Shown here: positions 58,701 through 61,700 of the stretch, piece after piece
Layout of the letters: each line of letters begins with the position of its first letter
Numbering within the stretch: the first letter of the stretch is position 1
NCBI RefSeq assembly: GCF_053078305.1
Contig: NZ_CP166879.1
Direction: 5' to 3' (one strand)
DNA: 64,000 bases
Program-made: the position numbers

Positions 58701-61700
58701 GTCGACTTACAACCTTTTAACTGACAGCAGGAGAGGCATAATGAAAACGCTGCTGATTATTGACGCTAATCTCGGTCAGGCACGCGCCTATATGGCGAAG
58801 ACCCTGCTGGGCGCGGCGGCGCGAAAAGCAAAACTGGAAATCATCGACAATCCGAACGACGCAGAAATGGCGATTGTTCTCGGTGATTCCATCCCGAATG
58901 ACAGCGCGCTGAACGGTAAAAATGTCTGGCTGGGCGATATTTCCCGGGCAGTTGCGCACCCTGAGCTGTTCCTGAGTGAAGCCAAAGGCCATGCGAAACC
59001 TTACACTGCGCCGGTCGCTGCGACAGCACCGGTTGCCGCCAGCGGTCCGAAACGCGTAGTTGCGGTGACTGCTTGCCCGACAGGCGTAGCACACACCTTT
59101 ATGGCGGCTGAAGCCATTGAAACCGAAGCGAAAAAACGTGGCTGGTGGGTGAAAGTTGAAACCCGTGGTTCTGTTGGTGCGGGTAATGCAATCACCCCCG
59201 AAGAAGTAGCCGCAGCGGATCTGGTGATTGTGGCGGCAGATATCGAAGTGGATCTGGCGAAATTTGCTGGTAAACCGATGTATCGTACCTCTACCGGTCT
59301 GGCGCTGAAGAAAACCGCGCAGGAACTGGATAAAGCGGTTGCTGAAGCAACGCCGTATGAACCGGCGGGCAAAGCTCAAACGGCGACCTCTGAAGGTAAG
59401 AAAGAGAGTGCAGGCGCATACCGTCACTTGCTGACGGGCGTCTCTTACATGCTGCCGATGGTCGTTGCAGGTGGTCTGTGTATCGCGCTTTCTTTTGCTT
59501 TTGGTATCGAAGCGTTTAAAGAGCCGGGTACGTTGGCAGCGGCGCTGATGCAGATTGGTGGTGGTTCAGCCTTTGCGCTGATGGTGCCGGTACTGGCAGG
59601 TTACATTGCCTTCTCCATTGCCGATCGTCCGGGTCTCACGCCGGGTCTGATTGGCGGTATGCTGGCGGTCAGCACCGGTTCTGGCTTCATTGGCGGTATT
59701 ATTGCGGGCTTCCTGGCTGGTTACATTGCGAAGTTAATCAGTACGCAACTGAAACTGCCACAGAGTATGGAGGCGCTGAAACCGATCCTGATCATTCCGC
59801 TAATTTCCAGTCTGGTGGTCGGTCTGGCGATGATCTACCTGATCGGTAAACCGGTTGCTGGCATTCTCGAAGGGTTGACTCACTGGCTGCAGACCATGGG
59901 GACTGCGAATGCGGTTCTGCTGGGGGCGATCCTCGGTGGCATGATGTGTACTGACATGGGCGGTCCGGTAAATAAAGCAGCGTACGCATTCGGTGTGGGT
60001 CTGCTGAGTACTCAGACCTATGGCCCGATGGCGGCGATTATGGCGGCAGGTATGGTGCCACCGCTGGCAATGGGTCTGGCAACAATGGTGGCGCGTCGCA
60101 AATTTGACAAAGCGCAGCAGGAAGGTGGCAAAGCCGCTCTGGTTCTTGGTCTGTGCTTTATTTCGGAAGGTGCAATTCCGTTTGCTGCTCGTGATCCGAT
60201 GCGTGTGCTGCCGTGTTGTATCGTTGGTGGGGCGCTGACTGGCGCAATCTCAATGGCGATTGGTGCGAAACTGATGGCACCGCACGGTGGTCTGTTTGTT
60301 CTGCTGATCCCTGGCGCTATTACGCCGGTACTGGGTTACCTGGTAGCAATTATTGCCGGTACGCTGGTGGCGGGTTTGGCCTATGCCTTCCTGAAACGTC
60401 CGGAAGTGGACGCAGTAGCGAAAGCCGCGTAATAAAAGGTGTGTTACAGGGCAGAAATTTACTGCCCTGTATCATTGGATGAGCACAAAGAGAATGACCG
60501 GTTTGTGAATGTAATTTTATGAATTTAAATGGTTTTATCTTTCAGTAGAAACCTGAAACGTTCATCAAACACTAAGGTTATTTCCTCAAGGGCAGATTCT
60601 TTTCTGCCCTTTTTTAGTGTTCATGTTCTGTGCATCCCGTCACAAATTCCTCGCTTTTGTAATTCAGGCATTTAATCGCATTTTGTGAGCCTGCTCAAAT
60701 CTGCCCGCTTTGCCTCTCTGGCGGCAATTTACTTTACGTAAAACATGCATACTATGAGCACATGTTTAAATATGAACACATGTTTAAACCGTCTTTGCAG
60801 TATCTATATCCTTGTGGATTGACAGGGTTGGTAATTTTTTACCAGAGGACGTGCTATGCGCGAAAAGGATTATGTCGTAATTATAGGTTCGGCGAATATT
60901 GATGTCGCCGGATATTCACATGAATCATTAAATTATGCGGATTCAAATCCAGGTAAAATAAAATTTACACCTGGTGGAGTAGGGCGAAATATTGCACAAA
61001 ACCTGGCGTTGCTGGGTAACAAAGCCTGGTTACTGAGCGCAGTAGGTAGTGATTTTTATGGTCAATCGCTGCTAACGCAAACCAATCAATCTGGCGTTTA
61101 TGTCGATAAATGCCTGATTGTGCCGGGAGAAAATACGTCGAGTTATTTATCATTACTCGATAATACCGGTGAAATGCTGGTTGCTATAAATGACATGAAT
61201 ATTAGCAACGCTATTACAGCTGAATATCTCGCACAGCACCGTGAATTTATTCAGAGGGCAAAGGTCATTGTCGCGGACTGTAATATCAGTGAAGAGGCAT
61301 TGGCATGGATTCTGGATAATGCCGCCAACGTACCCGTATTTGTCGATCCGGTTTCAGCGTGGAAATGTGTCAAAGTGCGCGACCGTCTAAATCAGATCCA
61401 CACTCTGAAGCCAAACCGCCTTGAAGCGGAAACCCTGAGTGGGATTGCGCTGTCAGGGCGTGAAGATGTGGCAAAGGTTGCCGCCTGGTTCCATCAACAT
61501 GGCCTGAACCGACTGGTATTGAGCATGGGCGGCGACGGCGTTTATTACAGTGATATCAGCGGTGAAAGTGGTTGGTCTGCGCCGATCAAAACCAATGTTA
61601 TTAATGTTACCGGAGCGGGCGATGCCATGATGGCGGGACTTGCTTCGTGTTGGGTAGACGGAATGCCGTTTGCCGAATCTGTTCGTTTCGCACAGGGATG

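Follow-up and report, generated by a model that had tools for sequence, protein, structure and literature searches.

The 64,000-nucleotide stretch of DNA analysed here (the window; NCBI RefSeq assembly GCF_053078305.1, contig NZ_CP166879.1) is the fruBKA-psuKGT region of Escherichia coli. In the spacer upstream of psuK, the first gene of the psuKGT operon for pseudouridine catabolism, it carries a 36-bp tandem repeat, and our analysis suggests that this repeat is very probably a double operator of the psuKGT promoter. The two putative operators, O1 and O2, are palindromes conserved across enterobacterial lineages at a fixed spacing, directly downstream from conserved promoter elements. With more reserve, we also favour the orphan protein YeiI as the pseudouridine-responsive repressor that would bind them. 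Pseudouridine is the most abundant modified nucleoside, and mammals do not degrade it, so that it reaches the bacteria of the gut. When E. coli adapts to the mouse gut, few targets are hit as repeatably as the psuK promoter, and the regulation of psuKGT is undescribed in the searchable literature. A transcription factor site is an ordinary kind of feature. What appears to be new, as judged from the same literature, is the map of the psuKGT promoter, with a CRP-like site, a -35 and a -10 hexamer and two putative operators, the explanation of a well-known adaptive mutation as a probable -35 up-mutation, and the suggestion that YeiI and its fusion relatives form a family of regulators.

The repeat upstream of psuK and its conservation

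We identified psuK from the list of open reading frames (ORFs) and from the RefSeq annotation of matching E. coli loci. It starts at 60856 on the + strand, and a 424-bp spacer lies between it and the end of fruA at 60432. In this spacer a first-pass annotation of the window had described two copies of CACATGTTTAAA with a spacing of 18 bp, located 70-100 bp from the psuK start. Both copies are exact (60759-60770 and 60777-60788), they are the only two on the + strand, they are 18 bp apart from start to start, and they lie 68-97 nt upstream of the ATG at 60856, in good agreement with that description. Of the span 60757-60788 given for the pair, the end is correct and the start is 2 nt early, the real start being 60759. 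The copies are part of a longer head-to-tail tandem duplication of an 18-bp unit (60753-60788), which has a score of 65 in Tandem Repeats Finder (TRF). The repeat, the putative operators within it, with their scores in the position weight matrix (PWM) used throughout, and the gene that they precede are:

60753-60770, + strand: tandem unit 1, TATGAGCACATGTTTAAA (repeat finding; TRF period 18, 2.0 copies, 94% matches)
60771-60788, + strand: tandem unit 2, TATGAACACATGTTTAAA, 17/18 identical to unit 1 (repeat finding, TRF)
60755-60768, no strand assigned: putative operator O1, imperfect palindrome TGAGCA-CA-TGTTTA, 14 bp, centre 60761.5, 18.9 bits
60773-60786, no strand assigned: putative operator O2, palindrome TGAACA-CA-TGTTTA, 14 bp, centre 60779.5, 18 bp from O1, 21.4 bits
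60856-61797, + strand: psuK (pseudouridine kinase), first gene of psuK-psuG-psuT (ORF list, RefSeq annotation)

By itself, without conservation, the repeat is not statistically compelling. CACATGTTTAAA is the sole exact sequence of at least 12 nt that recurs within 4-40 nt in the window, and at least one such close repeat is seen in 17% of 64-kb windows simulated under a first-order Markov model. Loose matches to CACATGTTTAAA in the window are at chance level, with 5 observed and 5.5 expected. Because a repeat alone is expected in this proportion of simulations, the case for it must rest on conservation. Footprinting of psuK upstream regions, which had been put forward as a test of the repeat, was carried out and came out in its favour, both cores being kept at 18 bp across enterobacterial lineages.

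A search with PsuK, restricted to one genome per species, gave 11 loci, from Escherichia spp., E. albertii, Citrobacter (5), Buttiauxella (2) and a Raoultella metagenome-assembled genome (MAG). The aligned upstream regions (12 sequences) share one conserved block, and the leader beyond it diverges until the ribosome-binding site. In order, the block contains ATTTACTTT, a spacer with AAAAC, GC.TA.TAT, rAryA-YR-TGTTyrA and GAACA-YR-TGyTyTAA. The GAACA..TG.T of O2 is invariant across these 12 sequences, and the rArCA-YR-TGTT core of O1 is kept in every aligned lineage. Both sites have the dyad arms AACA-NN-TGTT, O1 with one mismatch (AGCA). The cores are exactly 18 bp apart in all 13 lineages compared, and Salmonella and Enterobacter show the same layout. 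Two 14-bp palindromes of the form yrAACA-NN-TGTTyr, 18 bp apart and directly after the conserved -35 and -10 hexamers, are kept, with the core rAACA-YR-TGyT, in 15 enterobacterial lineages, from Escherichia (two promoter alleles), E. albertii, E. whittamii, Citrobacter (5), Buttiauxella (2), the Raoultella MAG, Salmonella and Enterobacter. Elsewhere in the window, outside the repeat, the PWM gives no score above 13.4 bits. That the pair is retained right after the -35 and -10 elements while the leader diverges supports the proposal of the first-pass annotation that this is a regulator site controlling psuKGT, and on these comparisons we hold the operator interpretation to be highly probable.

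The form of the site differs from that first described. The symmetric element is not the palindrome ACATGT; it is a longer one of 10-14 bp, (T/C)(G/A)AACA-NN-TGTT(T/C)(G/A). The dinucleotide at its centre alternates between CA and TG among lineages, and since this flip is equivalent to the same site on the other strand, it fits recognition by a symmetric protein. A dimeric regulator had been proposed. Because each unit holds its own palindrome, each repeat is probably a complete dimer site, and the pair would accommodate two dimers and not a single monomer on each unit.

Within E. coli, positions 60726-60804 are identical in 5 divergent E. coli, and the rest of the 424-bp spacer is variable. 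The 65-mer at 60726-60790 is identical in 3708 of the 4212 complete genomes that carry this promoter allele (88%), compared with 378/4207 and 433/3503 genomes (9-12%) for the neighbouring 65-mers, a crude comparison, since the alleles of the window strain serve as its reference. In E. coli the locus is a mosaic, and another 1200 genomes have a second, E. albertii-like psuK-promoter and psuK allele, with a PsuK that is 88% identical. In this second allele the units are GAACATGTGTTTAAA and TGAACACATGCTCTAA; their near-identity is gone and the cores are still 18 bp apart. The site pair is present in both promoter alleles, together in 5412/5426 genomes. The near-identity of the units in the main allele looks like lineage-specific homogenisation, and it favours slippage in this region. 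Strain UC4316 ('mutant of UC4224') has only one 18-bp unit, …TACTATGAGCACATGTTTAAACCGTC…, at the equivalent of 60753-60788; this is a slipped-strand deletion that left a single hybrid operator.

The loss in UC4316 and the 17/18 identity of the head-to-tail units are also what would be expected from a neutral slipped-strand duplication without function, and a single repeat of such size is not improbable in 64 kb. However, the two-site layout is older than E. coli, and in other genera the same spacing is found with units that are not near-identical. The pair also recurs in distant operons, described below, and it is identical in 88% of the genomes with the main promoter allele. We consider a neutral origin of this kind extremely unlikely.

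The predicted psuK promoter and its recurrent mutation

A consensus promoter scan found nothing at its threshold of 9/12, at which the candidate TTTACT/TACTAT, scoring 8/12, was missed. The psuK promoter was recovered by means of conservation and of a mapped single-nucleotide polymorphism (SNP). The elements found upstream of the putative operators are:

60684-60699, no strand assigned: candidate CRP-like site TGTGAGCCTGCTCAAA, centre 60691.5, at about -70.5, 1 mismatch to TGTGA-N6-TCACA
60728-60733, + strand: -35 hexamer TTTACT of the inferred psuK promoter; ATTTAC.TT invariant or nearly so in 12 sequences; position of the mapped SNP
60750-60755, + strand: -10 hexamer TACTAT, 16-nt spacer from the -35 hexamer; TA.TAT conserved in 12 sequences

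On the basis of consensus and conservation, psuK transcription is predicted to start at about 60762. O1 begins at the last base of the conserved -10 hexamer. Its centre would be at about +1 and that of O2 at about +19 of the predicted start, which suggests the position of a repressor. The CRP-like site, with 1 mismatch, is present in 13/13 lineages tested, at an identical distance to O1 in each; this distance to the O1 centre is -69.0 in the scan output and 70 bp by coordinates. A site at about -70.5 has what we take to be class I geometry. A CRP site, a weak -35, a -10 and two operators in this order are what one commonly finds at catabolic promoters under a specific repressor, and the psuK promoter is probably a weak sigma-70 promoter assisted by CRP at this candidate site. 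A second CRP-like sequence, TGTGCATCCCGTCACA at 60629-60644 (1 mismatch), is found about 53 bp upstream of the conserved one. Its equivalent is weaker, with 2 mismatches, in the other genera that have it, and was not detected in Buttiauxella or Salmonella. A downstream promoter between the repeat and the ATG was considered and rejected, as TTGACA at 60819-60824 is without an acceptable -10 partner and the region is not conserved.

The mutation 'psuK/fruA 2257444 A->C' has arisen repeatedly in the mouse gut, whether the animals were young, old or co-housed, and also in a resident strain (PMC7518454, PMC9509342, PMC10340439, PMC7064181). In one study a change in the psuK promoter was found in 71% of mice, always at the same base (PMC9509342), and an A->C change at 'psuKp', a single allele, recurs in three long-term stationary-phase populations (PMC7858067). 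The authors of the source paper name the site the psuK promoter region and state that such intergenic changes can alter psuK expression. We mapped the SNP with a v2-to-v3 offset of 1978, the sole offset that fits four srlR mutations with their published codon changes. It maps 126 nt upstream of the psuK ATG, at position 60730 of the window, where the change on the sense strand is T->G and converts the -35 hexamer TTTACT to TTGACT. Judged from the sequence, the adaptive change is a textbook -35 up-mutation, and the promoter call is supported by the fact that the one recurrent SNP of four independent studies falls on the third -35 base and creates TTGACT. The TTGACT variant is also present in five complete genomes, those of the laboratory strains ER1821R, ER2683, S17-1 and ST18 and of the pigeon isolate fEC.1.

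With a promoter at this position the repeat could also be proposed to act in the RNA, where the 5' end of the psuK mRNA would fold into a hairpin of 11 bp (60764-60774 with 60779-60789) that serves stability, translation or pairing with a small RNA (sRNA), RprA. The hairpin is predicted for the E. coli leader, with a minimum free energy of -29.9 kcal/mol (z = -2.9 relative to shuffles). Over 12 sequences 81% of cells show pairing, and one pair alternates between G-C and A-U. The psuK mRNA, with its leader at about 60762-60870, is also among the RprA partners common to TRIC-seq and RIL-seq (bioRxiv 10.1101/2025.09.11.675593). Complementarity, however, follows automatically from two palindromic DNA sites, and it is base identity (AACA/TGTT invariant) that is conserved, not pairing: three central pairs are broken in 5-8 of the 12 sequences, and covariation is no better than in column shuffles. 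If transcription starts inside O1, part of the stem may be left untranscribed. An Rfam scan of 60000-61200 gave only sub-threshold noise, and the best predicted windows for RprA pairing (60806-60860) are near the ribosome-binding site, outside the repeat, and no better than shuffles. We regard an RNA-level role of the repeat as very unlikely and discuss it below as a pair of putative DNA operators.

YeiI and its fusion relatives as candidate regulators

No published regulator of psuKGT or of pseudouridine was found in the searchable literature. The function of YeiI has been stated to be unknown (PMC9061257, PMC12506659), and the protein is listed among hypothetical transcription factors (PMC6055005). 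YeiI has 362 amino acids, of which a 53-residue winged helix-turn-helix (wHTH) domain (Pfam HTH_24, E = 1.7e-11) is followed by a PfkB domain 39% identical to PsuK, an enzyme without an HTH DNA-binding domain. An AlphaFold2 model of YeiI (predicted local distance difference test, pLDDT, 90) has three helices and a wing at residues 3-53, a short linker and the kinase domain, which superposes on PsuK crystal structures with a template modelling (TM) score of 0.95. No entry in the PDB combines HTH and PfkB domains, the best matches covering the kinase part alone. The determinants of pseudouridine contact, Ser30, Asn143 and Lys170, as defined in PMC9061257, are retained in YeiI and conserved in 35-36 of 36 family members. 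The YeiI HTH is 91% conserved across genera, compared with about 80% for the whole protein, and the recognition-helix region, ISRSxVAxHIMxL, is near-invariant both in the YeiI clade and in the clade of fusion proteins described below.

It is yeiI that faces psuT in convergent orientation in the loci of E. albertii, Citrobacter, Buttiauxella, Raoultella, Enterobacter and Salmonella, and in 22/22 loci examined a psuG neighbour or an adjacent psuKGT cluster stands beside the yeiI or wHTH-PfkB gene. In Salmonella enterica yeiI and psuT-psuG-psuK form a four-gene cassette, away from nfo and fruA, whose neighbours are a RelB/ParE pair, a transposase gene and a thymidine-phosphorylase-like gene; this context suggests that the yeiI-psuTGK module moves as a unit. 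In E. coli the nearest annotated regulator is yeiL, which together with rihB and nupX is an Escherichia-specific insertion. There are two allele classes of yeiI, in 3362 and 2060 genomes, which are only about 81.5% identical in DNA and are not strictly coupled to the psuK alleles. Strain S5 retains only a fragment of nupX.

Homologues with the wHTH-PfkB architecture are widespread. We examined seven distant contexts of 11-15 kb each, from Yersinia, Serratia, Pasteurella, Xenorhabdus, Shewanella, Aliivibrio and a Burkholderiaceae MAG, and in 7/7 the wHTH-PfkB gene is the first in an operon, followed directly by psuG and usually then by psuT. A separate psuK is absent from these seven fusion operons, which implies that their kinase is the fusion protein itself. 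The PfkB catalytic motif N-x-T-GAGD is found in 18/20 members of the fusion clade, the two that deviate being distant, while in the YeiI clade the motif is altered in 16/16, to D-x-F-GADD or a near variant, with GADD in 14. PsuK shares 53-60% identity with the fusion kinase domains and only 38-40% with YeiI.

The seven distant loci were scanned with the PWM, a symmetric 14-bp matrix trained on enterobacterial psuK sites only. In all seven the best match is 0-290 bp upstream of the fusion gene, a placement for which chance would be about 2-3% per locus in a naive estimate, or perhaps 15% if a preference for AT-rich intergenic DNA is allowed for. In 6/7 the match is one of a pair, with a spacing of 18 bp in Yersinia, Serratia and Pasteurella and of 19 bp in Shewanella, Aliivibrio and Burkholderiaceae. 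The pairs come directly after a -10-like hexamer, for example AATACT or TAGAAT, and the Aliivibrio example reads CAAACAATAGTTAG-tttag-TGAACATATGTTTG. Motif pairs at the fusion genes together with an invariant recognition helix tie the motif to this wHTH family far more than to other factors. The fusion genes of Yersinia and Serratia are annotated with an N-terminal extension, MFKNKQVSI, the DNA of which (…CACATGTTTAAAAACAAACAAGTGTCC…, 7001-7027 of both loci) is the operator pair; these two fusions probably begin at the internal MTSREKQIL, the start seen in all other homologues.

The data suggest a kinase-derived family of transcription factors with a defined DNA motif. The ancestral state was probably a bifunctional kinase and autorepressor, as the proteins of the other taxa probably still are. 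The simplest history would be that in E. coli-type Enterobacteriaceae the ancestor was duplicated, that the PsuK copy lost the HTH, and that the YeiI copy kept the HTH and changed its active site. Taken jointly, the proposal is that wHTH/PfkB proteins are an undescribed family of pseudouridine-responsive transcription factors, that in most Gammaproteobacteria and some Betaproteobacteria the fusion is both kinase and autorepressor of psuG(-psuT) through pairs of AAACA-NN-TGTTT sites 18-19 bp apart, and that in the E. coli, Citrobacter and Salmonella group PsuK and YeiI are subfunctionalised, YeiI being a pseudokinase sensor-repressor; we give this whole set of claims about an even chance. The start of PsuK, MREK-DYVVIIG (60856-60867), can be compared with that of the fusions, M-x-x-REK…(HTH)…-YVVVIG, a likeness that may reflect an HTH deleted in frame or may be fortuitous. 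We also considered whether the psuK 5' leader is a decayed HTH-coding region, since tblastn gives an alignment to YeiI about 20 codons upstream of psuK in Citrobacter; this is no more than a weak lead, as in-frame translations are without convincing similarity.

The putative operators might instead be bound by another transcription factor, such as YeiL (CRP/FNR family), a DeoR-family protein (DeoR, GlpR) or another nucleoside regulator. The position and conservation of the sites suit any repressor equally, and in E. coli yeiL, the nearest annotated regulator, adjoins psuT. In addition, TGTT-N8-AACA stands between the two cores in all lineages, an arrangement that resembles what we take to be the operators of DeoR (TGTTAGAATTCTAACA) and GlpR (TGTTCGAT/ATCGAACA), and C. 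werkmanii has TGTTCGATATTGAACA. Against YeiL, its gene is present in 5 Escherichia loci only and is absent from 8 loci that keep both sites (E. albertii, Citrobacter, Buttiauxella, Raoultella), on which ground we rejected it; moreover, the repeat is without a 5-N4/6-5 form (TGTGA-N6-TCACA, TTGAT-N4-ATCAA). As for DeoR and GlpR, whose family would use palindromes TGTT-N8-AACA of 16-20 bp with family-specific inner bases, the outer TGTT/AACA arms match and the inner bases vary among lineages. A single TGTT-N8-AACA site does not explain why the outer arms of the pair, the left AACA of O1 and the right TGyT of O2, are also conserved. Finally, the pair recurs at fusion genes in Pasteurella, Shewanella, Aliivibrio and a beta-proteobacterium, where the fusion is the sole consistently linked regulator. 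We consider a different regulator at these sites unlikely, though of the alternatives it is the one we weigh most.

For YeiI, the model that we consider somewhat better supported than not is as follows. A dimer of the winged-helix protein, which in E. coli we predict to be YeiI (b2160), would occupy each palindrome with its two HTHs. Two such dimers would span -7 to +25, occluding the -10/+1 region and early transcribed DNA, and so repress psuKGT. The inducer may be pseudouridine or its 5'-phosphate, bound by the kinase-like domain of YeiI. PsuK is a beta-clasp dimer that closes globally on pseudouridine binding (PMC9061257), and a similar ligand-induced closure of the kinase-like domain of YeiI could release the repressor. 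If true, the orphan y-gene yeiI would gain a function as the psuKGT-specific regulator.

Several points weigh against this model. The psuK start is placed by consensus and conservation only. No further YeiI-type site above 13.4 bits was found in the 64-kb window or in the yeiH-nfo-yeiI-nupX-rihB-yeiL region, so that near yeiI, nfo, nupX, rihB or yeiL there is no second site, and within these searched stretches neither a regulon nor autoregulation shows up in E. coli. The centres of the half-sites within one palindrome are only about 7 bp apart, and the inner TGTT-N8-AACA is an equally possible binding register, so that the stoichiometry may be other than two dimers. A centre-to-centre distance of 18-19 bp also places the two sites on different faces of the helix. 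Lastly, evolution in the gut readily knocks out many catabolic repressors (frlR, dgoR, srlR, glpR), and the available parts of the supplementary text of the gut-evolution studies contain no yeiI mutation, psuK being altered there through the single -35 SNP only. Missing yeiI knock-outs are unexpected for a simple repressor and may leave room for an activator or dual role; they can be explained if pseudouridine in the gut already induces the operon and promoter strength is limiting.

That the wHTH protein activates at these sites, or acts dually, instead of repressing would agree with an intrinsically weak promoter (8/12 to consensus) and with the repeated improvement of its -35 in evolution without yeiI knock-outs. 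However, positions at about +1 and +19, directly after the -10, are typical for steric repressors and not for sigma-70 activators, the conserved CRP-like site is already in an activator position, and the order -10, site, site is also found in Aliivibrio and in the Burkholderiaceae locus. We therefore think activation improbable, and repression remains the direction that we propose for YeiI.

Related systems and other features of the region

In domain organisation YeiI resembles the ROK repressors (NagC, Mlc, XylR), in which an N-terminal winged HTH is likewise fused to a ligand sensor with a sugar-kinase fold. ROK repressors are paralogous to true kinases in the same genome and use palindromic operators, often paired, at catabolic promoters that use CRP. 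They differ in that the sensor has the ROK/ASKHA and not the PfkB/ribokinase fold, and their operators are longer and unrelated in sequence. For YeiI the observation is limited to the exchange of GAGD for GADD in the catalytic motif. The closest analogues of the wHTH-PsuK fusions of Yersinia, Pasteurella and Shewanella, in which the catalytic motif is retained and whose genes stand first in their operons, are BirA (biotin ligase and repressor of the bio operon) and NadR, in which an active enzyme with an N-terminal (winged) HTH represses its own pathway from a palindrome that overlaps the promoter. In these cases the pathway is one of biosynthesis or salvage and the product is a corepressor, whereas the psu pathway is catabolic and its ligand is expected to be an inducer; the enzyme folds also differ.

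At deo, cdd, udp and nupG, CytR or DeoR together with CRP control nucleoside catabolism in an arrangement like that of psuKGT, with an upstream CRP-like site and one or more operators at or after the start. CytR and DeoR, however, belong to the LacI and DeoR families and their genes are unlinked to psu, and the presence of the psu motif co-varies with that of the wHTH-PfkB gene and not with CytR or DeoR. HTH_24 proteins of the Lrp/AsnC type bind palindromes of 13-15 bp with 5-bp arms, which is close to the 14-bp psuK sites. YeiI differs from them in being without a RAM/AsnC_trans_reg domain, and its similarity to solved Lrp/AsnC HTHs is marginal (E = 0.1-0.4).

The fruA-psuK spacer has further features. 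A terminator-like hairpin at 60442-60474 directly follows fruA, and a second one, with a T-run, is found about 110 nt further on, at 60588-60616, after a stretch that is near-invariant among E. coli. This could be an sRNA or a transcript derived from the 3' untranslated region; there is no Rfam match to it. Directly 5' of the Shine-Dalgarno GAGGA is a stem-loop, TTGGTAA-TTTT-TTACCAG (60828-60845). Its equivalent in Citrobacter reads GGCAA…TTGCC, which by eye looks like a compensatory change from T-A to C-G, and in the MAFFT-based pair count the region is misaligned. Two other tandem arrays were found in the window. One, where psuK and psuG join (61793-61832), consists of 1.9 copies of a 21-bp unit. 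The other, at 16803-17139, has three copies of a 113-bp unit with 94% matches and resembles intergenic repeats of the repetitive extragenic palindrome or bacterial interspersed mosaic element (REP/BIME) type.

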